A DNA stretch of 64,000 bases. Origin: a phage. Where the stretch lies: sequence record NC_101837.1; one strand, 5' to 3'. Numbering within the stretch: position 1 is the stretch's first letter; every line of letters begins with the position of its first letter. The notes below the pieces were generated by a model. That model was not told where the DNA came from. It did no database searches and was given only the letters and a program-made list of their open reading frames with translations. Shown piece after piece: positions 15,601 to 40,210 of the stretch. The position numbers and the translations under genes are program-made.

Positions 15601-18269
15601 CCTGTAGTTTGGTTAAACCACAGATTGCAAGAGTAATCCCTCATATAGTCATAATCAGAGTATTTGTTTACATCTTCGTTCCAACACATGTTCAGGTTGG
15701 TACCGCCCATGCATACAATATATTCTGCGACATACTTATCACTTCTGGTAGGAATACCTATGAACCATCTGTTAACAGGCTCATCCCAAGCTGTGCGCTC
15801 ATCTTTAACGCAGATAGCAATCCAGTCATGTGTTCCTGTTTTCTTGCACACATCTCGCTTCATACCATAGTAGAACTCTTTAGTATTCGGCTCAGGTGCA
15901 TTTATCAGGTAACTCCATGCCTGATTTGCATAAGTCCCATTGGTGCGCGGATCATGATCAAAGGCATACATGATGATCCTTTCCCCACCAAGATGTTCGC
16001 CAAGAGTAACTTTGACATTCACATCGCCGTAACCGTTGCGAACAACATCCATATTGTCAATAGAGATGCCTCTAGGAGTGTAGGCAATTTTCAGTGAGTT
16101 ATTCTCATTAGCGCCACCAAGAGTGACCCCTATGTTGTTTGTTGTCCCGTCGGCATATCTTACTGTGGCTTCCCAGCGTATTCCGAAATATCCTGCATCA
16201 TGACTAACAATTTTCAGTGTACGAGCACCAGAGTTAGGTTTTCCAGGATCAGGCCAAGGATCTGGATGTTCATGGACAGTCAACGATGTTCCGTTTTGCT
16301 CGTTGACCTGCAACATTTTACCGCCTCTGCCGTTAGGGTTGAACTCCCACAAGGCTTGTGTTTTCACAACATTGTCATACGTAGTACGTCTCTGATCGTA
16401 GATCTCTTGAGTCACATCGTAGGTTACAGACCCGGCATCCATTCTACAGAGTCGTACCATATACGATGTATCGCCTTCTACAGCAGGTTGAGCTGCGTTA
16501 AGCCCGAAGTATACAGTATCGTTGACATGGAACTGTTTGTTTCTACCGACAGTATGCCACTTGCCGTTGGACGGATACGCAGGAACTATGGTGTTCCAGT
16601 TCAAAGTTCTTGTCGTATGGGTTCTGCCTGTGCCATGCTTGTCATGATAGGTTATTTTTACAGAGTACAGGCCACGTCTGTTAACATTTCTGTTATACTG
16701 GGTAACAACAACTTCGTTGGCCCCACCGTGGTTCCAGTTGGTGGAGAATTGGTAATTTGCATCTGTAACAACCGTACCTGCAGCATTTACCAACTCAATC
16801 TTGTCAATAATGAACGTAGCCCCCTCTGGCTGAGGCTTCAATTTCATCTTGACCGTGTCACCAATGTAGATATTGCTAACACTACTAACACCATTAACGT
16901 CGAAAATATCATCAACGCCCCAACTGTCTACTGGGACATTTTTATACCAATTCTCAGGAACCTCTGTGAACCCCTGACTATTAAGTCTGCCGCCAAACAG
17001 GTTATTAGAGCCTGCAAAACTTCCCCTTGGGATGCCTGACCACCAAAGTTTGCCATTAACAACAGTAAAGGTCCCTAAGAAACCTTCTCTGTGGATACCC
17101 TGGAAATAAACACTTTCTGTCCAGCTTACTGGCATCCGTTGCTCGACGTATTTAGCCGTAGCCAGAGCCTGATAGTGAATAAAATTAGCCCTAGGACTGT
17201 TGTTTGCAGATTGTGCACCAATATCATTGCACAGATTGCGAGAGAAGCCACGATACTGTTTGGTGCCATTATTGAAGAAAATGCCACTTGTGCCGTATCC
17301 ACGAGCCATTATCACCTCATGGGTGTAGGTGATATTTAAGGAACGCCATGTGTCATCTCCCCAGACGTCTTGCCCGTAGAATACGTTAACAAGCTGTTGG
17401 TCATCAGGTTTGTGCATCCTTTCTGTGGCTATAATTGCACCATTAGGTCCACACATGAACCCTTTCCATGTCTCGCCCACCGGGATGCCTTTAAACTGGT
17501 CAAGAGTCACATGCTCGGCTGGATAAACTAGTGTGTTTTTGCTGTTATTTCTTAAGAAATCGTAACCTGCAATCCAGAATCCGTTAGGACCACCAAAAAT
17601 AACCGAGTTGTCATGAACTTCACAATTAATTCTTGGATTTTTCCAAGGACCTGTCTCTGGACTTTCAGATGTTTCACCGATCTTAACTGGAGTAGCGTGT
17701 TGACTTTTGTCAACATGAAGAGAGCCGTAAGTATTATTGCCAGAGCCGTACAGGTGAAGCATACCATCAGCCTCTGGTGCAGCAATTACCCACACTGTAT
17801 TGTTTACGCCACCCATTACTTCAACAAGTCTCTCAGGATGGGTGTCCAAATGCAACCCTGTTACGATCTGTTCCGGCAAAGGTGTCCACTCTCTGACACA
17901 AACATCGTTTCCACCTGCTGCCTCCGATCCGATAAGACCAGCTGTGCAACCAATATAGAAAAATTTATTATCGAATGTGCGGATTACAAATGCACGGTCA
18001 GCTCTCCAAACATGGTCTACGTTCCAAGCTGCCTCATTAGGATAGTTTATTGTATCAAGATCTCCAGTCCGACACTCTCCGAACCTATTATAGCCAGTAA
18101 TATTAAGCTGACCATCATCAAAAAGTATAGCTAAGCTATTTACATAGGATACTGTGTTGCTTGTACCATCACTGTTGTCTATTGGGTATGACAGAACAGC
18201 AAGTTCCTTAATTCCACCCCTCTTATCGAGGAAATGACGACCAAGTTTTAGCAAAGGGATTGGAAGCAT
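12642..18269 (-). CDS. giant tail fibre/tailspike-like structural protein (1875 aa)
   Basis: single uninterrupted ORF at distal end of tail-fibre block; Gly/Asn/Trp/Thr-rich composition typical of beta-rich fibre proteins; no catalytic motif confirmed. Confidence 0.45.
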   Translation of the reverse strand: MLPIPLLKLGRHFLDKRGGIKELAVLSYPIDNSDGTSNTVSYVNSLAILFDDGQLNITGYNRFGECRTGDLDTINYPNEAAWNVDHVWRADRAFVIRTFDNKFFYIGCTAGLIGSEAAGGNDVCVREWTPLPEQIVTGLHLDTHPERLVEVMGGVNNTVWVIAAPEADGMLHLYGSGNNTYGSLHVDKSQHATPVKIGETSESPETGPWKNPRINCEVHDNSVIFGGPNGFWIAGYDFLRNNSKNTLVYPAEHVTLDQFKGIPVGETWKGFMCGPNGAIIATERMHKPDDQQLVNVFYGQDVWGDDTWRSLNITYTHEVIMARGYGTSGIFFNNGTKQYRGFSRNLCNDIGAQSANNSPRANFIHYQALATAKYVEQRMPVSWTESVYFQGIHREGFLGTFTVVNGKLWWSGIPRGSFAGSNNLFGGRLNSQGFTEVPENWYKNVPVDSWGVDDIFDVNGVSSVSNIYIGDTVKMKLKPQPEGATFIIDKIELVNAAGTVVTDANYQFSTNWNHGGANEVVVTQYNRNVNRRGLYSVKITYHDKHGTGRTHTTRTLNWNTIVPAYPSNGKWHTVGRNKQFHVNDTVYFGLNAAQPAVEGDTSYMVRLCRMDAGSVTYDVTQEIYDQRRTTYDNVVKTQALWEFNPNGRGGKMLQVNEQNGTSLTVHEHPDPWPDPGKPNSGARTLKIVSHDAGYFGIRWEATVRYADGTTNNIGVTLGGANENNSLKIAYTPRGISIDNMDVVRNGYGDVNVKVTLGEHLGGERIIMYAFDHDPRTNGTYANQAWSYLINAPEPNTKEFYYGMKRDVCKKTGTHDWIAICVKDERTAWDEPVNRWFIGIPTRSDKYVAEYIVCMGGTNLNMCWNEDVNKYSDYDYMRDYSCNLWFNQTTGYPPRQARVNPAIFTDTQVFLTKQANEVQTFKNNYDPNKWFYNCYGAYFWGPAELPDSGSCFEAATYGSDYIMGQVKKYKMIPGPETLGNAVDPYINFAALHANMDGARYPFDVPVANGYRRVVMIIKCDLIGKQVLAENGTSTHPFEVALHYQFADSPYAGDKRISDTDSKRCKKVLLGAGWWWYEFDLTDKFTDDTKTLTGIRLDLGENMHKAVCDGTYGDPTVYLKYVSLEHPEDAVIGPKLKLFGSWIAKDRVGMGKKVRGFLIDAGTEDMLVNAVWPTLEGTAYNNAARSINWFNIHRAMWTTNCYLWRELNDQAFGFSDGRRMAIICWTTLQRCYDHDYEIGGRAWKDIRDRVIYNFADDNGGGAYNFGTSRLIHLNGSSAYKKEGYSGSMIEWGLVKDARVLMGQQLAAAIGPSAVQSAKPAWFDIPLWSSGTPGAAAINPTTGDLEISWEDLKQVGGWDKTGYQVQWWRADGSLAADEFVKDNFYTMSSAKAQQLFGQATPSTITMSMCCKDNRTGALGPRVAKVFSGIKWNLPVQSISWKQIGDNKLLVTPACQFNATLNVDPAVAANSAKASDFSVSNTAMADVRKIDTLNARITCKNTYGTFQIINNFTDADSKVVRTASQTLSLGTLAYAALITEQSATLQGGGVGKSIATPVWKPNEWVVFDLTVDFSSDNNWTWVRNCLSQLMGGPSSVSDSHDSTDPSVFQVGKTHPETGETLPDRKYALVCISYGKADVTFSGTHTYNGTYNFSRKYSLKAGNIIDEVGVLYNPGNGIGIVGGKLQMQEPSITPSNVSGIRKTWESSNTNIATVDATTGLVTFKATGNVTIKFVVRDDAGRKTSSTSFTVRQMAPQWFIWEGNPLDGAYPRPAGTSNMRVFTGPVMNNPTTTTNPTFFGAYIPEIIGLPRNQIQLLFGAGVDGLATFGYSDNIDAARSSGWIGFKFQWNPGGRTLGVASIGVMLPGNQQYHLEAYTNFPS

Positions 18270-23461: not shown

Positions 23462-25534
23462 TTATGAGAAGTCTGGCGGGACAACATCTTCTACATACCC
23501 TTTCAGAGCAACCTGCCCCATATGAAGCACGGTAGAATCTCTAGCGGTAACAGTGATGCTGTCAGACATTACTTGCGGATATGCCCATACATACTGTTTT
23601 ACCTCAGGGTATCTATACTCTATAGTTGCCATGTTTCCGCAAATACATCTCCATAAAAATTCTTGGTAATTCCTAGTTGGGTCGTAGCCATATACCGGAG
23701 CAAGCTCTTTACTAGGAACGAACCCTGCAAGGTATTGTATTTCAGACGGTTGCCAACCTAACTTAACGATAGGTATGTTTACAGACTCTTTTGCCTTTTC
23801 AATACCTCCCTGCATCACCCAATCGTAGCACTCAGTGCAGAAGAAATCAAGAGCACCTGCTTCCTTTTTATATTGGTCAGCAAGGTTCAGCTTTTGCGTA
23901 AGCTCGGTTTCCATAATGGTTGGGAAAAACAGCAAAGCTGTCATCTGAGCTGATGCAGCGTGTGCCTTTACTGCCTTTGAAATAGCCGCAATACGAGCGC
24001 CAAGCTTACCACGACAAAATGCTACATACTTGTCGTAAACACCGCCAGTTTTAGGATCGTCAATAGTCCCAATATCTAATGCATACTCACCTGTCTCATC
24101 ATAAAACGCCTGCTTTGTAGGGTAATCATAAATACAAGGTCTACGAGTATCGGTATTGTACCACCACCACGGTTCACCAACCTGCATAATCACTGGCAGG
24201 TTGTTTCTCATAGCGGCTGATGCAAAATTCTTAAATACTGCAGTAAGGAAATTCATACCCTCTTCAATGGTTGGAGACAGGAGGTAGCTACAAGGTGTAT
24301 ACCCTGTTTTAGCGTAGTTATCGTTCCAGTCTCTTTGGGTCCATTCCAACGGGCAGGCATCGCTGAAAAGCTCAAAACTTACAGATTGCATAACGTCGAA
24401 GTTATGTCGTTTGGCATTGTACATAAAATCATCATGCCATTTATAAGCTGCAGCGTTTAGCGCTCCTGTTCTGTTTATAGACCATTGAGTTCCTGACCAT
24501 GTGTAGTCATAATAATGACTCATACCAACATAATGGTTTATGGTTCCGGTATAGCCCAGACGCTTGATATTGTTCAACACCCTTAAAGGAGACACGTTCC
24601 ACATATCGTCATATGCTGTGCAGATCCCAACGTCGTGTTCTTTCACCTGAATATTGTTAAGTTGCATCATTTTCCAGCCTGTGTCTGGCTGAAGCAGATC
24701 TAGGCGCAACTCACACTCTACATTTTCCGTTCTTGGATCTGTGCTATTACTTACCCAGTCTTTAGGCATAAGTGGTATTAAAATCCTTCTCACCTGCCGA
24801 GGATCAACACCCATCATGTTGTTGTTCTGGTCCATCCCGACGCAGTCCTCAAAATCAATATGAATTTCTGCAACATTTTTATCCTCTGAGATGCTGACAG
24901 CATATTGAGCTAAAGGAACATAGATGATTGTGCCATCAACAAGGTCTACAGTCATAATCATCTTTTCAGGAGTGGAGAAGTTGCTGGCGTTGGTTATTGA
25001 CATTCTGAACCAAAGCTTGGTGTTTCTCATCTCATAGTGATCATCAAACCCAATACCGAAATGGTCATACTTGTCAACTGTTTCCCAAATGCACCCAGCC
25101 ATACCTCCATATGTTCTTGACACTAAACGGTTAATACAACAGTTGTTATCTGCAACAATACAGGTACTTTCAGTCTGCTGAGTGGTTGTAACCCAATATC
25201 TTGGGTGAAACATTCTCTCCTCAACAGTATCCCAAGATATCCTGTCAAGATTCTCATCTGAAACTATTGTACATTTCGCCCTTTGTGTTCCAATCATCAC
25301 TCCTTGAGATTTTGATGAAAACTCCATAAAGAAGCTTCTTGGCAACCTGTTGGGTAATTTGTCAACAATTTCCACTGGGATCTCAATACTGGTTGCCCCA
25401 ACTGGGATAGTTACATCGCCCTCAACATGATCATAATCTCTACCAGGAACGGCAGTATCCTGAACTGTGCGGTAATGAAACTGTGCAGCCATTGTAGAGT
25501 AATCACGGTAAGGTTTAAAAACAGCTGTTGCCAT
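23462..25534 (-). CDS. tail fibre/baseplate-associated protein (690 aa)
   Basis: sits in the P2 gpH position after the J- and I-like genes. Confidence 0.4.
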   Translation of the reverse strand: MATAVFKPYRDYSTMAAQFHYRTVQDTAVPGRDYDHVEGDVTIPVGATSIEIPVEIVDKLPNRLPRSFFMEFSSKSQGVMIGTQRAKCTIVSDENLDRISWDTVEERMFHPRYWVTTTQQTESTCIVADNNCCINRLVSRTYGGMAGCIWETVDKYDHFGIGFDDHYEMRNTKLWFRMSITNASNFSTPEKMIMTVDLVDGTIIYVPLAQYAVSISEDKNVAEIHIDFEDCVGMDQNNNMMGVDPRQVRRILIPLMPKDWVSNSTDPRTENVECELRLDLLQPDTGWKMMQLNNIQVKEHDVGICTAYDDMWNVSPLRVLNNIKRLGYTGTINHYVGMSHYYDYTWSGTQWSINRTGALNAAAYKWHDDFMYNAKRHNFDVMQSVSFELFSDACPLEWTQRDWNDNYAKTGYTPCSYLLSPTIEEGMNFLTAVFKNFASAAMRNNLPVIMQVGEPWWWYNTDTRRPCIYDYPTKQAFYDETGEYALDIGTIDDPKTGGVYDKYVAFCRGKLGARIAAISKAVKAHAASAQMTALLFFPTIMETELTQKLNLADQYKKEAGALDFFCTECYDWVMQGGIEKAKESVNIPIVKLGWQPSEIQYLAGFVPSKELAPVYGYDPTRNYQEFLWRCICGNMATIEYRYPEVKQYVWAYPQVMSDSITVTARDSTVLHMGQVALKGYVEDVVPPDFS

Positions 25535-27827: not shown

Positions 27828-30800
27828 TTAGTCGTGAGACTCGTTCCAAGGTCCCTGGAAGCTAGAGTTTGAACGACTTACTATCACAGTAGGACAGGAG
27901 ATTGTGACACCTGTCACGCTCGACGTTGACCACGGTGTGTAAATCTCGATAACAATGTCTATAGTTTGTTCACCCAGACCTGTTATCCCTACCGCACACA
28001 TGCCGTTGTTGTCGTTAAAATACTTCTTGCCAGCAAGGATCTGATGACCAGCTATCCATGCATTCAGTTGGGAGCTGGCAAGAGTACCATTCAGTTTAAA
28101 GAAGAATGTTACGTTCTTACCCTGACCTGAAACGTTATCTACGTATCTCCACCTCCAACGGCAAACCCTTTGCTGGGAGTTATATACTGGAGCACAATCT
28201 CCGTAAGTCCTGTGTGCAACAATCGCACCTTCGAACTGGTTAGCACGGATAACAGAAGCTTCTACACGACCACGGAAGGTACCTCCGGTTGCATCTATGG
28301 TGCCTCTAAAGCTACCATTATTGGCATAAACATCACCACGGAAGGTACCACTGGTGGCGTTAACTGCCCCTGTGAAGTTACCAGAACTGGCGTTGATGTT
28401 GCCTTTCACCCACACATCCATAAATTGGGCGTGCCCGTTCTTGTTAATGTACCAACCGTATTTATGGTACCCGTTGCCATCGTAGTTGTTTGACGAAATT
28501 TCTTGTGCGATCTTGGCAGAGGAGATCGTGCCATTCTCTATAAAAGCGTCTTTCAAGAACGCTTGGTTGTTCTTGATTGCGAAAGCAAGGGTTGCTGTTC
28601 CATTTCCAGGGTTGTATACCGCAAAATTGTTTGCACTAACCATGAAGTAGGATTGAACTTGTCCTCCAGACCCCTCCATGCCCAGCTGGATACCTGCAAC
28701 ATACTTATTCCCTGCAGAGTCTACCTGAATCTTAGCTCCCCACTGAGCATCTATTTTACCCTCAAGTGTTGTTACAGCTTTAGAGGTATTAGATACTGTA
28801 GCCCTGAGCTCATCAATATTACCCATTTCGTCAACAATTTCTTGTTTTGCAGAGGTAAGTTCTTGACGGATCGCTGTGGCTGTATTATTAACAAGATCAA
28901 CTGTTGTACTATTAGTTTCTTGAATAGATGCTTGCAGATTGGCAACCTCTTTCTGCACATCATCTTCCAGCTTGGTGATCTTCCCTGTAGCTGCCACCAG
29001 ATCCTGCTTAATAGCTTCCGTTGTCTTATTTAGCAGATCGGTTGTTGCCTTGTTGGTTTCTTGAATAGAGGAGTTAAGTTTGCTCTCAGTGTTCTTCAAC
29101 TCTTCCCGCAGAGTACCTTGAGTTGCAGTTATTTGCTCACTCAATGCTTGAGTTTTACGATTAACAAGATCAACGGTTGATCTATTTGTTGTCTCGATTA
29201 GTGACCCAAGCCTACCAGACTCTGCTGCAAGTTTATCGTCAAAGGATTGCTGAGCTGCTACCAGCTTACTGTTAAGGGCAGAAATTTCTCCATTAACCCC
29301 TGTAAATTTTTCTGTCGTCTCTCTGACAACACCCTCTATTGTATCCCCAAGCTCTTCAAAAATGCTAGTAACACGGTCATTGACTGCACCAACATTTTTA
29401 TCCATTTCCTTGACTGCATTATCGAGATTGGCGGTAAGCTCTTTATAAGTCTCTGTCTTTTTGAACTCAGCATCAATCTGTGGCATAAGATCTTCTATAG
29501 ATGTGTAACAGTGGGCTGCACACTCCACAAAAGCAGATGAACCAAAAGCATTTGTTGTCCTGATATACCAATAATAAATCTTATCGTTCTGCAGACCTTC
29601 AGATGTCCAAGTTGAACCAACACCCATACGAGTGGCTTTTGAAGTAACGGTTGCATCACTGGTATCTGGCAATCTTGTCATCCCAGATGTCCAAAAGTCA
29701 TATTGGGTGCTTACACTGGCCAAGTCTCTGCTGTGCGGGATCAGGGTAATAGCAAAGTATCCCTGTTTAACTTCTACAGAAACCGGAGCCTCAGGTGCCT
29801 GAATGTTAAACTCACAGTATGCTTCTGGAGATACACCACCTTTATAAGATGTTGCAACAACAGTGGCTGTGTAGGAACCTTTAGTCAGACCTTCAACACG
29901 GACAAACTGCTCAACTGTCTGCGCTGTCCAGACAATCTCTCCGTTTTTCCTGACCTGCACAATGTTTTGAGCATAAGTCCCAACGTTGTCCCAAGCCAAA
30001 ACACCGTGAGTTACTTCTCCAGCTTGGAGAACGGAATATCTGAAGTTTTGCGGTTGAGCTACACCAGATGGAGATATCGGAATATCTACATCGCCAGAAT
30101 CCGGAAGTTGCCCTGTGGCATCATTCCACTCTTTAGCATCTTGACGAAGTTTTACCTTGACACCCCCCTTTTTGGTAAACTCCCATTCAAGAACTCTCAT
30201 TTCTTGGCCCACTATACCAATACTTGGGAGGTCCATTGTAACGTAACGACCAGGTTTAAATTTGAAACCTCGCATATTGCAGGTGACTTCAATAATCCTG
30301 CCAGCTCTGGCACGTCTTAGGAAGATTGCAGAAACACGCTGAGCTTGATAAGGGCTGGTAACAAAGCGATAATCTATATCGATTATCTTTCTTTCTCCAT
30401 CCTTCTCTACCCACTCTGGGACAAACACTGATGGAAAATCTGTTTCAGAATACCCTTTGGTCGGACTAGTGAATCTGCCAGTTATTGTGTTGGATCTTTT
30501 GTCAAATGAGGCTTCCGGATAGATCTTGACCTCACCACAGACACAATCCTCACTCAGTGTCATTGTTGCCGGGCCATAGTATGCACCAACCAACAAACCA
30601 TACTTACCAGCTACATAACTAAGATCTGCACCGCAAGCTTTCAGCATTTCTGCCATAATACTTGCTGGGGCCTCATCCATGTCAAACTCACCGTTAATGG
30701 TGTAACGGCGCTCACTGGTTCCGTCTGCGTTTTTTACCGCCTCGTCGCATATGTTGGCAGCCTCCTTGAAGGACTCCCAGTTGATGGTTTCGTCAGGACA

Positions 30801-31427
30801 TTTAAGGTACGTTCTTAAATAGTCTAGGATCACCAAGGCAGCGTTATTGGTATACACCTCTTTACTGATACGAGGATCATAGCATTTTTTACCAACCTTG
30901 ACGAGTGTAACGTTTGGCAACCCAAAAGGAAACTTGTCAGGGTCAAACCTGAAGCTGGCACGTAGCCAACTGATCCCTCTACCTATCATGTCAGGTGACC
31001 ATGATGGGCAGTGTGTGCCCATGAAAGGATCAGATGTTTTTCTGTCGTTATGTAGCTCCCACGATACCAAATCCCCATACGAGGAAATAGGATTACCGTC
31101 GATAAGTATATCTTCTACACCTTCCAGAGGGTGATTGGCAAGAACAATAGCACAGTGGAGAGTTCTGTCTCTATCCTGCTCCAAAAACGCAAGCAATCCG
31201 GATGTGCGTGTCTTCCCATACACTACAGAGCAAGGTGCAGCAGAAGATCTGAGAAGCTTTTGTCTATCTTGCTGACTTCTGTAAGATTTGTTGCCCTCAA
31301 AAATCTTATCCAGAGTTCTGGTGGTAACAGTGTTCAGGCTGTCAGCCAGAGCTGCCTTGGATGCGTTCCAGTCATAACTTGAAGATCTTGCAGAAGCAAC
31401 GATGTTATCAATCATTGCAATTGGCAT
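27828..31427 (-). CDS. large tail/host-specificity-like protein (1199 aa) with central coiled-coil repeats
   Basis: N-terminal ~400 aa globular, long heptad-like Thr/Asn/Leu-rich segment, C-terminal Gly/Asn-rich region. Confidence 0.4.
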   Translation of the reverse strand: MPIAMIDNIVASARSSSYDWNASKAALADSLNTVTTRTLDKIFEGNKSYRSQQDRQKLLRSSAAPCSVVYGKTRTSGLLAFLEQDRDRTLHCAIVLANHPLEGVEDILIDGNPISSYGDLVSWELHNDRKTSDPFMGTHCPSWSPDMIGRGISWLRASFRFDPDKFPFGLPNVTLVKVGKKCYDPRISKEVYTNNAALVILDYLRTYLKCPDETINWESFKEAANICDEAVKNADGTSERRYTINGEFDMDEAPASIMAEMLKACGADLSYVAGKYGLLVGAYYGPATMTLSEDCVCGEVKIYPEASFDKRSNTITGRFTSPTKGYSETDFPSVFVPEWVEKDGERKIIDIDYRFVTSPYQAQRVSAIFLRRARAGRIIEVTCNMRGFKFKPGRYVTMDLPSIGIVGQEMRVLEWEFTKKGGVKVKLRQDAKEWNDATGQLPDSGDVDIPISPSGVAQPQNFRYSVLQAGEVTHGVLAWDNVGTYAQNIVQVRKNGEIVWTAQTVEQFVRVEGLTKGSYTATVVATSYKGGVSPEAYCEFNIQAPEAPVSVEVKQGYFAITLIPHSRDLASVSTQYDFWTSGMTRLPDTSDATVTSKATRMGVGSTWTSEGLQNDKIYYWYIRTTNAFGSSAFVECAAHCYTSIEDLMPQIDAEFKKTETYKELTANLDNAVKEMDKNVGAVNDRVTSIFEELGDTIEGVVRETTEKFTGVNGEISALNSKLVAAQQSFDDKLAAESGRLGSLIETTNRSTVDLVNRKTQALSEQITATQGTLREELKNTESKLNSSIQETNKATTDLLNKTTEAIKQDLVAATGKITKLEDDVQKEVANLQASIQETNSTTVDLVNNTATAIRQELTSAKQEIVDEMGNIDELRATVSNTSKAVTTLEGKIDAQWGAKIQVDSAGNKYVAGIQLGMEGSGGQVQSYFMVSANNFAVYNPGNGTATLAFAIKNNQAFLKDAFIENGTISSAKIAQEISSNNYDGNGYHKYGWYINKNGHAQFMDVWVKGNINASSGNFTGAVNATSGTFRGDVYANNGSFRGTIDATGGTFRGRVEASVIRANQFEGAIVAHRTYGDCAPVYNSQQRVCRWRWRYVDNVSGQGKNVTFFFKLNGTLASSQLNAWIAGHQILAGKKYFNDNNGMCAVGITGLGEQTIDIVIEIYTPWSTSSVTGVTISCPTVIVSRSNSSFQGPWNESHD

Positions 31428-31864
31428 TAATACCTCCAGACATCAACAACGATAGAATCTTTCATGTCGAACATAAAGACCCCTTTATCACCTTTCGCCC
31501 AAATCTGGTTGTTCCAGAACACACCAGCGGTGAGCCCGTTCAGACCTTCGAAAATGACAATATCTCCACGCTGAACCTGTTTAGGAGTATCCAGCCGAGT
31601 CAGAAAGAGATCAAAAATAGTAGGCAGGTGTGTGGTTTTGAAACGAAGCATGCACCATCTTTTGCTTTCCAACTCTGTTTTATACGTTCCTTCGAAGTTA
31701 GAAAGAAAATCTGTTCCGTATTGGGCATCAACACACTTAGCTGCAAAGGTGCAACAATCGTGGAATCCCCATTCAAAAGGTATGGTGGCCTCTTCGTCAA
31801 ATACTTTCCACAATCTTTCTTGCCAGTCCACTAGACGAGGATGTGTGCTCATTAAACCTCCCAA
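31427..31864 (-). CDS. tail/baseplate assembly protein
   Basis: 145-aa ORF translationally coupled to the 1199-aa gene. Confidence 0.3.
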   Translation of the reverse strand: MGGLMSTHPRLVDWQERLWKVFDEEATIPFEWGFHDCCTFAAKCVDAQYGTDFLSNFEGTYKTELESKRWCMLRFKTTHLPTIFDLFLTRLDTPKQVQRGDIVIFEGLNGLTAGVFWNNQIWAKGDKGVFMFDMKDSIVVDVWRY

Positions 31865-32418
31865 ATGATCGGGCGGCTCGCCACCTGATCCACATATTTA
31901 AAAAATCTGTCATTATCGTTTCTTGAGCTGTGGCTTTCCTCCGTGTACCGATAAGGAAAACCTCTTAACCAACTGTTGAAGATGGAAGAGATGGATATGG
32001 ACAAAGCACTATTCTCCCCTGTCTGAATAGCCATATCTGTTATAAGGCCGTCAAACAAGCCATTAGTTGTGACAGGCAGACCATTCTCCATAGCGGTAAT
32101 GTACAACGTGGCACGACAACCGGAATACTCCGTCTTCAGAAGATCACCCACATACTTAGGATCAAACCCGTTCAATGTCGCTACCACAGATCCGAAGTTG
32201 GTGGCATCTTTCTCAGACACAGCAGTTAACGTTGCTGATCCACCTATCCCTATAAAATGTTGCCCCTCAATTACTACAACACCAGTGCCTGAGCACACCC
32301 TGACAGTTCCTGTCGGTAGCTCCAGCTTTGCAGCAATTAAGATCTCAACACCATCAAGCTCCAGCTTTTCAAGAAATAAATTATCTAATGGCGCTCTGAT
32401 CATCTTAGAAATCCTCAA
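31852..32418 (-). CDS. tail/baseplate protein
   Basis: 188-aa ORF in structural operon. Confidence 0.3.
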   Translation of the reverse strand: MRISKMIRAPLDNLFLEKLELDGVEILIAAKLELPTGTVRVCSGTGVVVIEGQHFIGIGGSATLTAVSEKDATNFGSVVATLNGFDPKYVGDLLKTEYSGCRATLYITAMENGLPVTTNGLFDGLITDMAIQTGENSALSISISSIFNSWLRGFPYRYTEESHSSRNDNDRFFKYVDQVASRPIIWEV

Positions 32419-32995
32419 AGAGGTTGATAACTATATTATCACCTTTTTGCATAGCATCGACTTTTTGCTTAATTTTATGAATATCTCTGATATGAAACCT
32501 ACCCTTCGGGGATTGAGTTATTATCTTCATAGTGTCCCCTGCGGCAATAGGTTTTCTAAGTCTTGGAGATATGCTTATAACAGCAGCCCCAACACCATCG
32601 CTGCGCACTGGAGCTGTTACCACTTTCAACTCATCATTGACAGATATTTTATCGCCAGCTCTAGCTATGTCTCTGTTTGGCTCCCACCCAACCGTCTTCA
32701 AAAAATCGTCGTTACCAGTAGGCCCCAGGGCGATTGGCTCATTAGCTGTTACTGAGTGACCGTAAGTTTTAATAAGAAAGATGTTTCCATCTTTATACAC
32801 CTGATCAACAAAGCTCTTAAGCTCTAACAACTGTGACTCGCTGATATTGGAAACCGTCAAAGTGCCTTTCCAATTAGGTGTGGCATAGGTTACTTTTTGC
32901 GTTTTACCTGTAAACGGACTTTTAAACGTAACAATATCTGCCAGCAGCTCCAATCTAATATCTGGAAGGTATCTAGGCCTTTCCCATAAAAACAT
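32405..32995 (-). CDS. tail/baseplate protein
   Basis: 196-aa ORF in structural operon. Confidence 0.3.
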   Translation of the reverse strand: MFLWERPRYLPDIRLELLADIVTFKSPFTGKTQKVTYATPNWKGTLTVSNISESQLLELKSFVDQVYKDGNIFLIKTYGHSVTANEPIALGPTGNDDFLKTVGWEPNRDIARAGDKISVNDELKVVTAPVRSDGVGAAVISISPRLRKPIAAGDTMKIITQSPKGRFHIRDIHKIKQKVDAMQKGDNIVINLFEDF

Positions 32996-33054: not shown

Positions 33055-33087
33055 ATACAAACAAAAAGCCCCCGCCGAAGCGAGGGC
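33055..33087 (-). terminator. rho-independent terminator (variant of the same UUCG hairpin)
   Basis: hairpin 33068-33087 with one G-U pair on the transcript, followed by UUUUUGUUUGU. Confidence 0.45.
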
Positions 33088-33094
33088 AAAACAG

Positions 33095-36000
33095 TTACTT
33101 CAATTTCTCTTGCAACCCAGTAACAACCTCTGTCAATTTTTTAACCTGCTCCTCAAGGGCGGTTATTTTATCATCCTGTTCCCTGCAAACCTGGACAAGC
33201 AAGCCTGTTACAGCTGCGTAATCCACGCTGTAGAATCTTTCCTCTGTTATCAAAGGAGTTCCATCTTGATCAGGGTTTGGGATTTCCTTTCTTTGCACGA
33301 AAGAGCTAACCGCTTCCGGCAGAGCTTCAAGCACTTCTTGTGCTATAACACCTGCATAAGGCATACCGTTCTCTTTAAGAGTGTAAGTATAACCCTTCAT
33401 CTTCCGGATAGCTTCTAACGCATCAGGAATAACAGCTATGTTATCTTTCAGGTCTCTGTCAGAACTCTGATTGACAGATGTGCAATTCACAGCGCCGTTT
33501 ACAGAAAGATATCTTGATTTATCCGGCAAGGTACCGCAATGCCATACCCAATTTGATTGAGACTCGTCAAGAACCTTAAACTCTAACACGTTTGGACGAT
33601 CTCCTGTGCTGCCGTTACCCCAATAATACATATGGGCGGCATTAGCAGGCATGTTGCCACCGTTATTAGTAACATGGCTTCCAGAAATATACACCTTTAA
33701 CTCTGGGGTTGGTATTTCCCCTTCTGGGGTTGTTCCTCCATACCTGAAGCTAACACCATTACCACCTGTTTGGGTCCACGGGCCCCAAGTGAAGACCTGT
33801 TTCACCATATTCCCATAACGTGTGAATCTATCGCCATGGTAGGTAATATACTCTTGAACACACCCATTACCGTTATTGGCGTTATTTTGCAACACAATAA
33901 GTGTTCCGGCCTCATTTACGGGATAATGACGATCATATGTTGCATCATTATTTGCAGGCTGATGGTAAATACCTTCCCACAATCCGTGATAGGTGTTAAG
34001 GTCTGAAGAACCAAGACCTTGACCCCTGTGTTGCATGGCCTTATTCCAGGGATGGTGATTACCACCTTCTATAGACCTGGTGTATAAGTTACTTTGTCTG
34101 CCAGCAATCTGGAAAGCGTAGTTTCCCGAGAATCCTACAGATAACCCGCCTACAACCATGGTATCTTGTGGGCCGTTAACATTACCAGCTATTATTTTTG
34201 ACGGGTTGTTAGGCCCAAACTGGTTGTTCCAGTCTGCACCCGTGTGGCATACAAAACCGCCCGGAGCTGAGAAAGTGCCATCTTTGTTGAAGTTGTAGAA
34301 TCTATGAGCTGTGCCTACAACATCACGAACAATAACTTGAGCAGCTTCTGGAGTAGATCTGAACTCTGCCTGACCTTGGAGACCAGCACCATTACCGCAT
34401 TTAGAGGTAAACGTACCGTTAGTCAGATCACCTGTCCCATCTGATGCACACTGGAATCCTGCATTAGAGAATAACGCCTTTCTAGGACTGCCGTAGCACA
34501 AATAGTCAAGACCGTCTGCCCATAGCTCGACTTTTGGCATATTCATTTTGCTCATCACAGCATAGCGTTCAGCAGTGCCTATATAGTGCCACTGTGTGCC
34601 GCCACCAGTGTAGAACCCTGAAGTACCTTTGAAGTCAACAATAGGTCTGGTATTGGTGTTATTATCTCCAAGAATAGCAAGATTCAAATCTGCTGACTGA
34701 AGAGGTGCAACGAACTTAACCCCATCCTGATTGTCTGTTACAGCCCCAACCTGGTAATCTTGCTCTCTGGTAAACACTTCGACAACATTTCTACTTGCGT
34801 ATATGCTGACAGGGAAAGCACGAGCCTCCACATAGAAAGCAACATACTCTTGTTTACCCCTTGTTGGAGCAATCATCCCAAGAAGTGCTTTTTCATTCTG
34901 GTAGAAATTTACTACCCCGTAGAAAGAGTCTCCCCTGTCCGTCCAGCCGCCAGTTCTATAGTGACACTGCAGGGTGGCACAGTTCATAGGGTCATTTCCA
35001 GATGAAGACCTGGTGACTATAGTAATATCTGTACCTGTCGAAGGGGCGTAATACGGATCTGTTCTAACGATGATTGGGTAGTATTTCCCATCTTCCATCC
35101 CTGCGGTTCTTGGCAGTGTTAAGAAGTCTTTTACACCTGCTGCTATAGGAACTTTGAACAGATTCTGAGCATCTGCTAAAGTTGTAGCCCCAGTACCACC
35201 TGCGGCTTGAGGTAAAGGTTCCCACTTGGCCTTCCGGTTGTTATAAACACCCCATTCCAGAGTGCCGTTACCGGATTCGTCCATTCCTCCATCCCAGACC
35301 ACCATCTTGGCGGCTTTCTTGGACCCCCAAAAGCCTCTTTCTGCTCCTGAACTACGGATCCATTCTCCAAGTCCCCAGTTTGTCAGCTGACCAGTAAGAT
35401 CCCCAACCTGCATATATTTAGGGCAGTCTAATACGCCGTCTTCGCGGAAACCTAAATATCTGTGAGTTTCAGATCCTTTTGCACCTTTGTGCAGGTGGAT
35501 TGTCAACCAAGCCTTATTGTCGTTTCTTACCTCAGAATAGATCCTATATCCATGCTCAAGGACACCGTCAGCGCTGTATTTGTCCCCGTTAACAATACCC
35601 GAGGCTGACTTAACATCAGCAGAACTTTGAGACAGGTAAATGTGCCCGAAGGTAGGGGTATTTCTAGGCCCAAGACCGATGTGCGCTCTAAAGGTATCAT
35701 CGTTACGAGGTCTGACCATCGGCTGCCATGCAGTCCACTGGTTTGTGTTGGCCTGATAGGTTCTCAAATACCAAACATCTACGTTAGAGAATGGGTAGTA
35801 TTCCTGACGACAACCTGTACCGCCGTTAGCATTGTTCTGCCAAACAATCAAGTGACCAGCACCAGAACCTGCAGGGTAACCATTTGCCTCAGTTGCATAA
35901 GCAGTCATCGGCTGGTAGTATACACCATCCTGATTACCAGTCAAGTTATTGATATTGAAATTTGGCTCAAGGGCTGCACGTTGCTTATAGAAAGCCCCGA

Positions 36001-36907
36001 TATTGATACGGACTCCAGCGGCATCTCTGGCCCCTGTACCGCCTTGCTCTATAGCAAGAGGTTGCCACGAGGCTGTTTGTTGGTTCCACATACCCCAACG
36101 GCCTGTTGCGTCAAGCTGCAAGTACCCTGCCGTGTTTAAATCATCTCCAGCACGGATAACTGTTCTTGTTGGGTTGTTTGCCTCCAGGCGTTTAAATTCA
36201 TCACGAAGTGCTATTCTTTTTGTTGTTGCTACACCGTTGGTTACTGCGATGGTATACATGGCTCCGGATGTAGCGCCACGGAAAATACCATCAACAGTTG
36301 TAGTATCACGACGAGATACCACACCGTTCAGAAATTTTTCACCAGCTGCTACAGAAGGGTAGTTGGTGGTTCTTCCCTCTTCAATAACTGCAGGACCCAC
36401 AAAGTTATCAAGGTGAATAACATCACCTACAGTGTGCACCGTACCAAAATCTACACGCTGTGCAAGTGCTTTAGCATCGTTAGCTGTCTGAACAGTAACA
36501 TCCATTACATCCTGGACAGACTGCCCTTCGGCTGTCATGATCATAGATGCGCCAATGGTAGATTCCAGCTCCTCCCTTAGGGACGGGTCAGTATATACCA
36601 TCCATGCAGCGTCAGTAATCCCACCATCTGAGTACGGTGAAGATAGTGCAGGAACAGTGTGTGGAAATTCGCCTTTCCAACGCAGGTAGAGATCTTCCTC
36701 TTCGAAATAGGCAAAATCCATTGGGCCGTTTAACTTACCACCTTCCTTAAAGGAGATTACATGAGAAACAGTCCCATCCACATGGACAACATCGCCAATT
36801 TTTACACGACGGGTCAGGTCTGGTTGTTGAACAACCAGGTAATCATCCTCTGTCACTGCGGTAGTGGCAGGAAGAGATTCAATTCTGACAACTTTAATAT
36901 CAGCCAT
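33095..36907 (-). CDS. tail fibre with C-terminal self-cleaving intramolecular chaperone (peptidase S74-like) domain
   Basis: 1270 aa; C-terminal SDRDLKDNIAVIP...GVIAQEVLEALPEAV matches the S74 chaperone motif; N-terminal ~100 aa similar to 39542..40210. Confidence 0.6.
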   Translation of the reverse strand: MADIKVVRIESLPATTAVTEDDYLVVQQPDLTRRVKIGDVVHVDGTVSHVISFKEGGKLNGPMDFAYFEEEDLYLRWKGEFPHTVPALSSPYSDGGITDAAWMVYTDPSLREELESTIGASMIMTAEGQSVQDVMDVTVQTANDAKALAQRVDFGTVHTVGDVIHLDNFVGPAVIEEGRTTNYPSVAAGEKFLNGVVSRRDTTTVDGIFRGATSGAMYTIAVTNGVATTKRIALRDEFKRLEANNPTRTVIRAGDDLNTAGYLQLDATGRWGMWNQQTASWQPLAIEQGGTGARDAAGVRINIGAFYKQRAALEPNFNINNLTGNQDGVYYQPMTAYATEANGYPAGSGAGHLIVWQNNANGGTGCRQEYYPFSNVDVWYLRTYQANTNQWTAWQPMVRPRNDDTFRAHIGLGPRNTPTFGHIYLSQSSADVKSASGIVNGDKYSADGVLEHGYRIYSEVRNDNKAWLTIHLHKGAKGSETHRYLGFREDGVLDCPKYMQVGDLTGQLTNWGLGEWIRSSGAERGFWGSKKAAKMVVWDGGMDESGNGTLEWGVYNNRKAKWEPLPQAAGGTGATTLADAQNLFKVPIAAGVKDFLTLPRTAGMEDGKYYPIIVRTDPYYAPSTGTDITIVTRSSSGNDPMNCATLQCHYRTGGWTDRGDSFYGVVNFYQNEKALLGMIAPTRGKQEYVAFYVEARAFPVSIYASRNVVEVFTREQDYQVGAVTDNQDGVKFVAPLQSADLNLAILGDNNTNTRPIVDFKGTSGFYTGGGTQWHYIGTAERYAVMSKMNMPKVELWADGLDYLCYGSPRKALFSNAGFQCASDGTGDLTNGTFTSKCGNGAGLQGQAEFRSTPEAAQVIVRDVVGTAHRFYNFNKDGTFSAPGGFVCHTGADWNNQFGPNNPSKIIAGNVNGPQDTMVVGGLSVGFSGNYAFQIAGRQSNLYTRSIEGGNHHPWNKAMQHRGQGLGSSDLNTYHGLWEGIYHQPANNDATYDRHYPVNEAGTLIVLQNNANNGNGCVQEYITYHGDRFTRYGNMVKQVFTWGPWTQTGGNGVSFRYGGTTPEGEIPTPELKVYISGSHVTNNGGNMPANAAHMYYWGNGSTGDRPNVLEFKVLDESQSNWVWHCGTLPDKSRYLSVNGAVNCTSVNQSSDRDLKDNIAVIPDALEAIRKMKGYTYTLKENGMPYAGVIAQEVLEALPEAVSSFVQRKEIPNPDQDGTPLITEERFYSVDYAAVTGLLVQVCREQDDKITALEEQVKKLTEVVTGLQEKLK

Positions 36908-36942
36908 TCTTTCTCCTGAAAGGGGGCAAACAGCCCCCTATG

Positions 36943-39540
36943 TTAAAGGTACAATCCACGGTATTGAGCATAAAGGCCCAGACCGCGAAGGATTTCGCCA
37001 GAGTGATAGCCCACCGGATCAGAAACTGCCCAGCAGCCGTTTAAAACATTATCCCCATTGATGAAGTGGTGCTTTTGCAGTAGCTTCATACAGGCTTCTA
37101 CAACAATGTCTATTTGAGGTATTGTCTCTGAATACCCGCACAGACCTAGCCAGCAGCAACCTGCAAGCCATTCACCTACCACCCACATCCTGTCCCCTCT
37201 GTCTTGATAAGAATATCCCCCAGAGGTGTTAAAGTCTGTAGGCAGATTTCCTGAATGAGATGACTGGAATCTGTTGAGGAACCATGCCCATTTCTGGCAG
37301 AACAGGAATAATCTTTCATCAACAGGTTCTTTATGTTTCTTGAGCTCATAGATTGTGCGGCACGCAGCAACAAAAGATCTTGACTGGAGCTTAGAGTTAT
37401 CTACCATCTCCCACCAACCAGTCAGCCCTTCATTACCTCTCTGCCATACATAACGCGAGGCAACTGGACCCTCTGTCTTAAATGTATTATTATACCAGAC
37501 TTGAGCGTCATACAGAAAGCCTATTGTATTTGACAATCTATGGCGATCTATGTTTTCTGCACCCATGCAGTATACTGCTGGGTATTGCATGCCAGGGTAG
37601 GGCCAATTTGGCTTTTCCTCTAAGAGATAGTTTTCCTTATCTATCACCTTTCCGGCAGGGAACACACCTGGTGTGTGCCTGTATGCACCTTGCTTGTAGT
37701 TTCTGACATAGCAATCACCAACCTTAGCGGTTGATTCTGTCTTGCTTGCCATCCATACGCTAAACCATATTAGATAAGCATCCCTATCTGCAATATAGAA
37801 CTGCGGCAGCGTGTTTACGCAGTACAGATCAAACAAGCCATTACCTATCTGCCTGTCGCTTAGGCTGAAATCTACAGAGGTGAGCCCCTTAGGATTAGCA
37901 AAGAAAGGTTTAATCTCTTCTTCTGTGTGATGAGGTTGTGTCGGATCTAGTTTGAAATCTCCTAGAGTAAGAGTTTCTGTTATCCATTGTCCATTAGTGG
38001 CATATAGATCAGCATACCATAACCACCTATCTTTGTCAAGAAATTTGACCCTTACCATCTCATCATCTGATCGATAAGTTACTGAGTTTAAAGAAATCTC
38101 TCTCCCAAAATTGAAAGTTACTTTACCTCTTGCTATATTACAACGGGTGAAGTTGTCAGAGTGGTTGTAAATGTCGGTATCATACTGCATACTAACACTA
38201 GCGCCACCGCTTACGACAATGTTTTCCTCTTTAGGTAAGAGATACGGATTACCGTCTTTACCAACTACCTCTACGAAATCAGTGACCTTGGCAACTATTT
38301 CTGTTACCTCTGCCCCTCCAAAAGGAACCCCTATCCTGTACTGTTTTTTGTTATTGTTGCCATCATTAAGGATGAAATGTGGCTGGAACAGAACCCCTTC
38401 TCCTCCGAAATTCATAACAATTTCAGCATCTCTGCCTATTTTGTATGTAGTCCCTTTTTGAATTATTTCGCAAGGCTGGCGTGCGTTCATTCTAAAATTG
38501 ATATACCCGTCACTGTCCCTGCTCATGGCAGGAACTGTTCCTGCAACAAGGCAAGTACCATCTGTAAACGGTGCCTTAATCAACGTGGTCTTCCTAAACA
38601 GTTTGTCGTAGGCGTTTATATCACTGAAATTAAGCAATTTGTTGTAAGACTGTTTAAACGCGGTGTAATACTTTTCCTCACCTGTCAAGGTGTAGAGTTG
38701 ATAACAAGCGTCACACCACATTTCTTCCCCGTCCAACTCTGGGGCCTGATTATCTGCAACCACGTTTATAGGATTTACAATTACAGGGGATCCTGCAGGT
38801 ATCACCGATCCGCCCTGCTCTTGAGGTAATCTTACACAATAGGTCACCTTGTGGCTGCCTGTAACACCCTTATCTTGTAATTGGATTGTGCCGAACTCTA
38901 CAGACGTATGACCACTGTCGGCTATGCTACCGTTAGCCCAATAGCGGTTACCATCCCATGCTATGTACCACTCAACCCACCAACTTAATCCGGATGTTGT
39001 CCAATCTGGGTTAGCATCTGTGCCACCGTAAACATCAGAGTCTACAGTGTTTCTTCCTAACACACCGTTATACGCTTGGAATGCCTTGTCAAGGTATTCT
39101 CCCCATGTCGGAGATCCAGCTGGGATTTTTCCTCTACCGTTGGTAAAAGACACCACCACATCTTTAAACCCACCATGTGATGGAACCCCATCTGTGGATA
39201 GGGGGTAGTGGGACAATCTTTGCATTTTACTTTCTACTGCATATGCACCCAGAAGATGGCTATTGTAAGCTTCCCAAGCATCTTTTGCCCTACCCAGATA
39301 GAAATCGCTTTTCGATGCCCTGTATGCTTCAATGTATCCCAGAATCAACACAGCTTGGGACTCATGCATTGCCCAATCATTATTTATCTTATCACCTGCC
39401 CACCCTGCAGCTATAAGACCATCAGGGTTTACTAGCTTATTTTGTGTAGGGGTGTTGGTAATACCTGTGTTGTTATCGAGGCACTTCCTGTGCCCCTCAA
39501 TCATCTGAAATACGTTATCAATGTTATGTTGAATACGCAT
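36943..39540 (-). CDS. large tailspike-like protein (865 aa), possible carbohydrate-active domain
   Basis: Trp/Tyr/Gly-rich ORF directly downstream of an anchor-domain gene; enzymatic role is conjecture. Confidence 0.35.
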   Translation of the reverse strand: MRIQHNIDNVFQMIEGHRKCLDNNTGITNTPTQNKLVNPDGLIAAGWAGDKINNDWAMHESQAVLILGYIEAYRASKSDFYLGRAKDAWEAYNSHLLGAYAVESKMQRLSHYPLSTDGVPSHGGFKDVVVSFTNGRGKIPAGSPTWGEYLDKAFQAYNGVLGRNTVDSDVYGGTDANPDWTTSGLSWWVEWYIAWDGNRYWANGSIADSGHTSVEFGTIQLQDKGVTGSHKVTYCVRLPQEQGGSVIPAGSPVIVNPINVVADNQAPELDGEEMWCDACYQLYTLTGEEKYYTAFKQSYNKLLNFSDINAYDKLFRKTTLIKAPFTDGTCLVAGTVPAMSRDSDGYINFRMNARQPCEIIQKGTTYKIGRDAEIVMNFGGEGVLFQPHFILNDGNNNKKQYRIGVPFGGAEVTEIVAKVTDFVEVVGKDGNPYLLPKEENIVVSGGASVSMQYDTDIYNHSDNFTRCNIARGKVTFNFGREISLNSVTYRSDDEMVRVKFLDKDRWLWYADLYATNGQWITETLTLGDFKLDPTQPHHTEEEIKPFFANPKGLTSVDFSLSDRQIGNGLFDLYCVNTLPQFYIADRDAYLIWFSVWMASKTESTAKVGDCYVRNYKQGAYRHTPGVFPAGKVIDKENYLLEEKPNWPYPGMQYPAVYCMGAENIDRHRLSNTIGFLYDAQVWYNNTFKTEGPVASRYVWQRGNEGLTGWWEMVDNSKLQSRSFVAACRTIYELKKHKEPVDERLFLFCQKWAWFLNRFQSSHSGNLPTDFNTSGGYSYQDRGDRMWVVGEWLAGCCWLGLCGYSETIPQIDIVVEACMKLLQKHHFINGDNVLNGCWAVSDPVGYHSGEILRGLGLYAQYRGLYL

Positions 39541-39541
39541 C

Positions 39542-40210
39542 TTAGATAGCTCCTGCGATAATCAGTGCCCCGTACCAAGTTAACCCGTTGTCGTAGGTTT
39601 CCAACTTGAAAATATCTGTTGCACCAGCTGTAAATGTTAGGATAGGATCTCTTCCGTAGGACCATTTAACATTACCAGGCCAATATACTTTGTTGCCGCC
39701 AGAGGTCTGAGTAATGCATACGGTTATAGTTCTCGCCACTCCTTCAAGACCTTCTGTTTGATTTTCAAAAGAGATTGTGGTATTTGAAGTTAGTCGAACC
39801 TTAAAGGTATCCGCAACTTCAAGATCCATATCAAGCTGACCACCGATAGATCCGTAATCAACTATTCTGCCAGAAGAAGTTGCAGCAAGCTCACCAAAAA
39901 CAGACCAGGCATTTGCAGACACACCCCCAGCACCCTCTACAGTAGAGTCTGGGAGGATTATTTTAGGATAATCCCCGTTCCACGTGTAGTAGCGCTTAGT
40001 TTCTGGGTCATAAGCAAAGTCCTTCTTGCTCTTAAGATAACCACCCTCTGTGAAATAGACTATCTTAGTAATGCTAAGATCGTTGACAACATCGTCAATC
40101 TTAGCCTTTCTTGTCCCATCAGTCTGGTTGACAACCAAGAAGTCATCACTCAAGACTGTTTCTGCATCTTCAAGATCTGGAATTGGTATTGTAGGATAAG
40201 CTACAGCCAT
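39542..40210 (-). CDS. fibre/spike N-terminal anchor-domain protein
   Basis: 222 aa; N-terminus (...DDFLVVNQTDGTRKAKIDDVV...KDFAY...) paralogous to N-terminus of 33095..36907. Confidence 0.4.
   Translation of the reverse strand: MAVAYPTIPIPDLEDAETVLSDDFLVVNQTDGTRKAKIDDVVNDLSITKIVYFTEGGYLKSKKDFAYDPETKRYYTWNGDYPKIILPDSTVEGAGGVSANAWSVFGELAATSSGRIVDYGSIGGQLDMDLEVADTFKVRLTSNTTISFENQTEGLEGVARTITVCITQTSGGNKVYWPGNVKWSYGRDPILTFTAGATDIFKLETYDNGLTWYGALIIAGAI

Follow-up and report, generated by a model that had tools for sequence, protein, structure and literature searches.

The locus and its genes

The window analysed here is a stretch of phage DNA of 64,000 nucleotides (NC_101837.1), and this report concerns three consecutive genes at positions 33095-40210, which encode homologues of the gp43, gp42 and gp41 proteins of phage rV5. 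In a megablast search of the GenBank phage collection, this segment matched 123 records, 115 of which span most of the query. The best match was Escherichia phage PMBT16 (99.9% identity), and rV5 itself was 97% identical. Because of these two matches, the window is identified, at the nucleotide level, as an rV5-like Vequintavirus, a myovirus infecting E. coli. The original prediction, made from the letters of the window, placed here three open reading frames (ORFs) of 1270, 865 and 222 residues, all of which were recovered, on the minus strand. All three products have been detected by mass spectrometry in the rV5 virion (PMC3606486). The genes and the modules of their products are as follows:

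39542-40210, minus strand: gp43 homologue, 222 residues, a short adaptor or mini-fibre, probably trimeric (ORF; PHROG 7760 'tail fiber protein', E 8e-120)
39896-40210, minus strand: N-terminal anchor of gp43, with an N-peptide at residues 1-~45 and Tail_spike_N at 51-105 (PF18668, E 2e-10; homology to gp41 7-105)
39545-39883, minus strand: C-terminal beta-sandwich 'knob' of gp43, residues ~110-222, proposed docking site of gp42 (conserved domain; linkage in IMG/VR)
36943-39540, minus strand: gp42 homologue, 865 residues, a glycoside-hydrolase-like virion protein without an anchor domain (ORF)
33095-36907, minus strand: gp41 homologue, 1270 residues, precursor of a long lateral tail fibre (ORF; PHROG 6578 'tail fiber protein' over the full length; 97% identical to rV5 gp41)
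36593-36907, minus strand: N-terminal anchor module of gp41, residues 1-105, with Tail_spike_N at 46-103 (BLASTP, Pfam, PDB sequence matches)
33464-33766, minus strand: distal tip of gp41, residues ~1048-1148, exchangeable, the presumed receptor-binding end of the mature fibre (comparison with LL12)
33098-33463, minus strand: intramolecular chaperone of gp41, residues 1149-1270, S74 at 1149-1200 followed by a helical tail (Pfam, motif, PDB match)

The gene order runs from homologues of the tape measure, tube initiator, hub, spike and sheath initiator to gp43, gp42 and gp41, with gp43 directly after the sheath-initiator homologue, inside the baseplate core block. The 222-residue gene is indeed directly followed by the 865-residue gene, as proposed, with one base between the gp43 stop and the gp42 start (TAAGATG). 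In tblastn searches, gp43 was 100% identical to proteins of other rV5-like phages.

gp41 and gp43 share an N-terminal attachment module

The N-termini of gp41 and gp43 had been proposed to be homologous and to form a common baseplate docking domain. Residues 7-105 of gp41 and 8-105 of gp43 aligned with 38% identity (BLASTP, E 3e-18), which establishes the homology. Pfam assigned Tail_spike_N (PF18668) to both proteins, at residues 46-103 of gp41 and 51-105 of gp43, with 41 bits each against a gathering cut-off of 25. When the six-frame translation of the window was searched with a hidden Markov model (HMM) of the first ~50 residues, gp41 and gp43 were the sole ORFs matched. Among PDB sequences, the N-terminal module of gp41 matched the N-terminal parts of CBA120 TSP4 (5w6h), G7C gp63.1 (4qnl) and gp13 of 9occ, and the Tail_spike_N module matched the N-terminal parts of CBA120 TSP1, TSP3 and TSP4, of G7C gp63.1 and of other tail proteins, at residues ~70-260. 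Both gp41 and gp43 carry the module within their first 105 residues, that is, in the particle-proximal position of Tail_spike_N proteins.

Of the proposed common docking domain, the presence of a known virion-attachment module in both proteins was therefore borne out. The shared N-terminus would fix both appendages at the baseplate periphery, with the baseplate wedge or another fibre as candidate docking sites; the cryo-electron microscopy (cryo-EM) maps of phi92 do not resolve the site (PMC13450770). An N-terminus resembling that of the P22 tailspike has already been reported in rV5 gp43 (PMC3606486). An N-terminus common to the small protein and another side fibre was also found in phi92 (gp140 and the endosialidase gp143), 4MG (gp49 and the colanidase gp47) and SeKF_13.

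gp43 and gp42 are linked across phages

By tblastn, 535 phage records were found to contain gp43 and 524 to contain gp42, distributed over the genera in nearly the same way. Wherever a record figures in both tblastn listings (PMBT16, MaxBurger, PD114, PATM, phAPEC6, EC001, Vibrio K368, K448 and Yersinia ISAO8), a gp43-type segment lies just upstream of gp42 on the same strand. Beyond Vequintavirus and Seunavirus, the conservation of gp43 is limited to its C-terminal ~80-115 residues, here called the knob. BLASTP comparison of fetched loci revealed the same pair, a small knob protein followed by a gp42-like protein, in Nernie and phi92 (157 and 958 residues), 4MG (224 and 929), the Kolesnikvirus SeKF_13 (244 and 1157) and the Crifsvirus ECO319P1 (259 and 972).

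The linkage is strict in IMG/VR as well. In all 80 knob-bearing loci retrieved from IMG/VR, an ORF of the gp42 family abuts the knob gene downstream, with overlapping or abutting frames. For the reverse count, 80 IMG/VR loci with a gp42-family gene were retrieved; five are cut by the contig end, leaving 75 testable, and a knob lies directly upstream of the gp42-family gene in 66 of these. The other nine encode a fusion with gpI, the baseplate wedge protein of P2 (Tail_P2_I, E 5e-52), in which the gp42-like enzyme is joined to the C-terminus of the Tail_P2_I domain. Judged by these sequence comparisons, the adaptor and the enzyme are co-inherited as a unit.

The nine gpI-fusion loci (L140, L145-L147, L151-L153, L155 and L156) are prophage-like contigs with gpJ- and gpV-like neighbours and no separate knob gene. 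A single 293-residue metagenomic protein (P0070) joins ~195 N-terminal gp42-like residues to a knob at residues 202-287 (HMM E 2.5e-18); genuine recombination, a deletion that joined two tandem cassettes, or faulty assembly could each explain it.

The anchor of the small protein changes with the lineage

The knob is kept in the small proteins of Nernie and phi92, 4MG, SeKF_13, ECO319P1 and ISAO8, whose N-termini differ. That of 4MG has the N-peptide and Tail_spike_N, as in the window, and the colanidase fibre gp47 shares its N-terminus. The small protein of phi92 and Nernie has the N-peptide alone, which in phi92 is shared with the endosialidase gp143 (E 9e-11); the N-peptide HMM matches both gp140 and gp143. 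The SeKF_13 protein carries a Kolesnikvirus-specific N-terminal region also found in the preceding 502-residue tail protein. Another anchor occurs in Yersinia phage vB_YenP_ISAO8, a T7-like podovirus, in which a 269-residue protein combines Phage_T7_tail, above threshold, with the knob (L168, 2985-6579). Its 930-residue gp42-like gene, annotated 'glycosyl hydrolase', overlaps the end of the 269-residue gene, and the pair occupies the tail-fibre gene position; the stretch examined has no other annotated fibre gene.

We assign the role of adaptor to gp43 because the anchor varies with the virion, the cargo domain stays constant, and the cargo itself lacks an anchor and is elsewhere joined directly to a baseplate protein, which together form the signature of an adaptor. 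The original prediction had considered the 865-residue protein a split or adaptor-mounted tailspike, possibly enzymatic. Adaptor mounting is supported by the comparison. gp42 is not a classical beta-helix tailspike. Taken as a whole, the comparative evidence supports the reading of gp42 as an adaptor-mounted enzyme well, as far as gene arrangement and homology can speak for it.

gp42 is an enzyme-like protein and gp43 a putative trimer

gp42 has an (alpha/alpha)6-barrel fold with two large beta-rich insertions, at about residues 100-260 and 329-613 (160 and 285 residues). It was assigned to no Pfam family, and its sequence placed it in no defined glycoside hydrolase (GH) family; GH76 matches in its relatives were sub-threshold only (E 3e-4 to 3e-3). 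Its sequence had no match in the PDB at E<=10, and matches of its profile to the PDB were limited to one helix hairpin. D502 is conserved without exception across the gp42 family (37 relatives), and E60, D270 and E849 almost so. Neither Pfam nor the N-peptide HMM detected an anchor module in gp42. Presumably, the protein binds or cleaves a surface polysaccharide. The earlier description of it as Trp/Tyr-rich holds only mildly, with 3.1% W and 5.5% Y, compared with 2.1% and 4.7% in the gp41 fibre and 2.3% and 5.4% in gp43.

The sole significant Foldseek match of the low-confidence gp43 model in the PDB was the trimeric capsid spike of Pa223 (9ny6, E 3.6e-5), a tentative match; a Pa223 match was likewise reported for gp140 by the authors of the phi92 cryo-EM study (PMC13450770). 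gp43 itself is probably trimeric.

The fibre gp41 ends in an S74 chaperone preceded by an exchangeable tip

The proposal that gp41 carries an S74-type intramolecular chaperone was confirmed by Pfam, which matched Peptidase_S74 (PF13884) from residue 1149 to 1200 with E 8e-14 and 52 bits, the cut-off being 22. The quoted motif SDRDLKDNI is present, and its first residue is residue 1149. The segment S1149-D-R-D-L-K1154 lines up with the site at which the phi92 endosialidase gp143 is annotated to be processed (INT|SDGTLK), the annotated mature peptide of gp143 stopping right before S-D-G-T-L-K. gp41 also has a Ser-Lys dyad (S1149/K1154), the Lys lying five residues beyond the Ser of the predicted cleavage site, and its C-terminus matched that of S16 gp37 (6f45) in the PDB sequence search. 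gp41 is thus predicted to cleave itself between S1148 and S1149, giving a mature fibre of 1148 residues and releasing a chaperone of 122 residues. The published rV5 mass-spectrometry results do not resolve this step (PMC3606486). The similarity of gp41 to the endosialidase chaperone was already noted for rV5 (PMC3606486), and pfam13884 at residues 1151-1200 of rV5 gp41 is cited in the LL12 paper (PMC7229145).

LL12 gp41 is 91% identical over residues 1-1047 and then continues into an unrelated tip of ~430 residues without S74 (L167, 11304-16075), with an extra 110-residue gene downstream. The end of identity at residue 1047 therefore indicates a recombination point near that residue and, because LL12 diverges after it, we regard the chaperone and gp41 residues ~1048-1148 as one receptor-binding cassette that can be exchanged. 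Self-BLAST found no internal repeats in gp41 at E<0.01.

Comparison with known receptor-binding systems

As in the branched complexes of CBA120 (TSP1-4) and G7C (gp66/gp63.1), several receptor-binding proteins of one virion share an N-terminal module. Unlike in CBA120 and G7C, the cargo gp42 is a separate polypeptide, presumably held by the knob, with an (alpha/alpha)6 barrel instead of a beta-helix, and in the window's tail genes Pfam found no T4-gp10-like branching domain. The chaperone follows the K1F and phi92 gp143 endosialidases and S16 gp37 in having S74, with its S-D-x-x-L-K motif, at the extreme C-terminus of the fibre. It differs from that of phi92 gp143 in that, outside the motif, the identity of the domain is too low for BLAST, and processing of gp41 is predicted here from sequence.

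Adaptor-mounted depolymerases are a known design in podoviruses, such as the gp37 adaptor of K1-5 and SP6 and the anchor-branch systems of the KP32 type, where an enzyme without a particle-binding domain is mounted on a small protein of the virion and modular exchange broadens the host range. In contrast to these systems, gp43 would dock its cargo via a ~110-residue beta-sandwich knob and the fold of the enzyme differs; no sequence relationship was detected. The ISAO8 pair, with a known anchor of the T7 gp17 type, then the knob and then a gp42-like enzyme, has the same construction, the window using an rV5-type anchor instead.

The Pa223 capsid spike gp52 (9ny6) is a short homotrimer with an N-terminal attachment peptide of ~40 residues and a C-terminal knob, a build that gp43 would resemble. 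Unlike gp43, gp52 is capsid-bound and stands alone, and it is 13% identical to the low-confidence gp43 model. Set beside GH8, GH88, GH105, GH76 and the AGE-family epimerases, gp42 has a barrel interrupted by the two beta-rich insertions, and no family threshold was reached.

A proposed mechanism and its alternatives

The mechanism that we propose is as follows. The three genes would close the late tail operon and encode two side appendages built on one attachment module. The first, gp41, would be the long lateral fibre, presumably trimeric, attached to the baseplate periphery through its first ~105 residues. Its last 122 residues would nucleate the folding of the trimer and then cut themselves off at S1149 through the S1149/K1154 dyad, uncovering an exchangeable receptor-binding tip of ~100 residues. 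The second would have gp43 as a short adaptor, with the same anchor and a beta-sandwich knob that holds gp42, translated right after it. Knob and enzyme would thus form a portable two-gene cassette, which could be fitted to other virions by changing the N-terminus of the adaptor only. We consider this combination of a shared-anchor fibre and an adaptor-mounted gp42 probable, with appreciable room for error.

Several observations weigh against it. Anchors of the Tail_spike_N type usually dock on a gp10-like partner domain, and Pfam detected none among the window's tail genes. The binding of gp42 by gp43 is something that we infer, and no knob-enzyme fusion was recovered in the ~280-residue N-terminal extensions of P0028, P0036 and P0040 (hhalign probability 0.9%); the knob HMM, run on long gp42 relatives, reached E 0.03 in one member only. 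The AlphaFold2 model of gp43, built on a four-sequence alignment, has a mean predicted local distance difference test score (pLDDT) of 46.6, and its N-terminal half is unmodelled. On the side of the enzyme, gp42 is ~10% identical to known glycoside hydrolases, no catalytic residues could be assigned, and (alpha/alpha)6 barrels are found in epimerases and terpene cyclases too. The HIDEN-SEQ data for Bas54 (MaxBurger) add a further difficulty: bas54_0025, the gp43 gene, was hit at 7 of 47 TA sites and classed as Essential. The presumed cargo tolerates insertions, bas54_0026 (gp42) being classed as Intermediate with 94 of 189 sites hit, and for this reason gp43 should be more than a passive carrier: either baseplate assembly requires it, or another essential part is mounted on it.

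In the same data set, bas54_0027 (gp41) is also Intermediate (154 of 238 sites), and bas54_0034, which encodes the N4-gp65-like fibre gp34, is Essential (17 of 144). After competition in liquid culture on K-12, reads remained at none of the 47 sites in gp43 and at 7 of the 238 in gp41, those in gp42 were only sparse, and the next gene, bas54_0028, had reads at every listed site. Mutants of gp41 and gp42 are thus outcompeted, and both proteins contribute to fitness even on a rough laboratory strain. The per-site HIDEN-SEQ counts used are those taken after competition, from which no clean map of N- versus C-terminal essentiality can be drawn.

These data bring to the fore the alternative in which gp43 is mainly an essential structural element at the baseplate periphery or serves several fibres as a hub (such as the N4-gp65-like deacetylase fibre gp34, or gp41 through homotypic N-terminal contacts), the carriage of gp42 being secondary or incidental. 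The pattern of Essential calls for bas54_0025 and bas54_0034 and Intermediate calls for gp42 and gp41 is what a hub would give, and the gp43 gene adjoins the sheath-initiator homologue in the baseplate core block. The order of small protein, gp42-like protein and next fibre in phi92, Nernie and 4MG, and the fusion of two of the 37 gp42 relatives to NCTSP domains, point in the same direction. However, the knob also occurs in different tails (the T7-like ISAO8, Crifsvirus and jumbo phages), where it is always accompanied by a gp42-like gene and not by baseplate genes; moreover, were gp34 hung on gp42, then gp42 would be essential as well. We regard this alternative as unlikely, though it deserves to be taken seriously.

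gp43 could also be an independent receptor-binding spike, with a knob that binds a host glycan, as has been suggested for the capsid spike of Pa223, in which case gp42 would be attached separately or act as an assembly factor, and the linkage would reflect a joint function. This would suit the Foldseek match to Pa223, whose trimeric spike stands alone and has an attachment peptide at the N-terminus and a TNF-like knob at the C-terminus; in the phi92 cryo-EM study, gp140 is counted separately among the fibre candidates. It sits poorly with gp42 being a virion protein without a recognisable anchor and with the 80 of 80 linkage in overlapping or abutting frames. In the loci that lack a knob gene, the enzyme forms one polypeptide with P2 gpI, which implies that it needs an anchor in cis or in trans. 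An independent spike is, in our judgement, improbable. That the N-terminal similarity is a mere trace of recombination or duplication, without a common docking role, is very improbable: the tail fibre genes of this group are mosaic, as the tip exchange in LL12 illustrates, but 38% identity indicates long divergence under constraint and not a recent copy, the arrangement recurs independently in four lineages with three anchor types, and the module is a curated attachment domain.

Neighbouring genes and other observations

Just past gp41, the following feature was found:

33068-33087, minus strand: terminator-like hairpin and T-run, 8 nt past the gp41 stop, with an 8-bp stem of 7 GC pairs and then TTTTTGTTTG

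It is likely to be the end of the transcription unit. A second hairpin, with a 7-bp GC stem, lies at 36921-36939 (minus strand) in the 35-nt gap between gp42 and gp41. It was rejected as an attenuator, given that shuffled sequences fold equally well (z -1.28), and as a terminator, being unreported by the pattern scan and followed by three U only after the stem.

Downstream of gp41, at 27828-32995 (minus strand), a siphovirus tail-tip module like those of lambda and PY54 lies within the myovirus baseplate cluster. It encodes proteins of 196, 188 and 145 residues, the last with DUF6950, and a J-like protein of 1199 residues with Phage_Tail_Tip and Ig_J. According to HIDEN-SEQ, the Bas54 homologues of this module are non-essential, except for the 188-residue gene, which is Intermediate. 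At 23462-25534 (minus strand), a protein of 690 residues belongs to the N4 gp65-type 'non-contractile tail sheath' proteins, with NCTSP_N and a TIM barrel (E 2e-80). In the two gp42 relatives mentioned above, which are among P0012-P0028, NCTSP domains share a polypeptide with a gp42-like region, and in phi92 and Nernie an N4 gp65-type gene comes directly after the gp42-like gene. This hints at a functional link between gp42-like and N4 gp65-type enzymes.

An ORF of 1875 residues at 12642-18269 (minus strand) has a Big_2 Ig-like domain near its C-terminus and no Tail_spike_N anchor. The large Bas54 gene bas54_0041, in the corresponding part of the locus, is non-essential and may correspond to this ORF. 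Finally, GenBank records MG065644-MG065682, labelled 'Campylobacter phage' (A116, C7, C9, A112b and others), some of them of 58-59 kb, are 97-100% identical to this region. These Campylobacter jejuni phage records look like mislabelled or contaminating sequences.

Significance for rV5- and phi92-like phages

Neither the shared anchor nor the S74 chaperone is new, both being documented for rV5; what is added here is the evidence that gp43 and gp42 form a portable cassette. No prior description linking the two proteins was found in the literature, which is weak evidence given that subscription journals were thinly covered. Which genes build which fibre in rV5- and phi92-like phages has been stated to be unclear (PMC8594841), as has the fibre composition of this phage group (Maffei et al.). 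The 2026 cryo-EM study of phi92 left fibre II unassigned, did not mention gp141 and named gp140 only as a candidate for a fibre of its own (PMC13450770).

If gp43 is the adaptor of gp42, as we propose, the knob and the (alpha/alpha)6 enzyme could make up a previously unrecognised plug-in appendage, moving horizontally among myoviruses, jumbo phages, podoviruses and P2-like prophages with the anchor of the adaptor as the only part exchanged. It could also account for unassigned side-fibre density in rV5/phi92-like phages (fibre II of phi92 or the arm of fibre I), the adaptor there being an essential baseplate component as well. We put this wider picture forward tentatively, as a possibility that we would not yet rely on.

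rV5- and phi92-like phages are favoured for therapy for their many-fibred 'Swiss army knife' baseplate. The rule that the knob protein carries the neighbouring enzyme, and that its N-terminus tells where it docks, gives a concrete fibre assignment to test, and could steer the annotation of the more than 500 phage genomes with this pair. It also suggests an engineering route, in which the cassette of knob and enzyme would be moved to another phage by a change of anchor alone.

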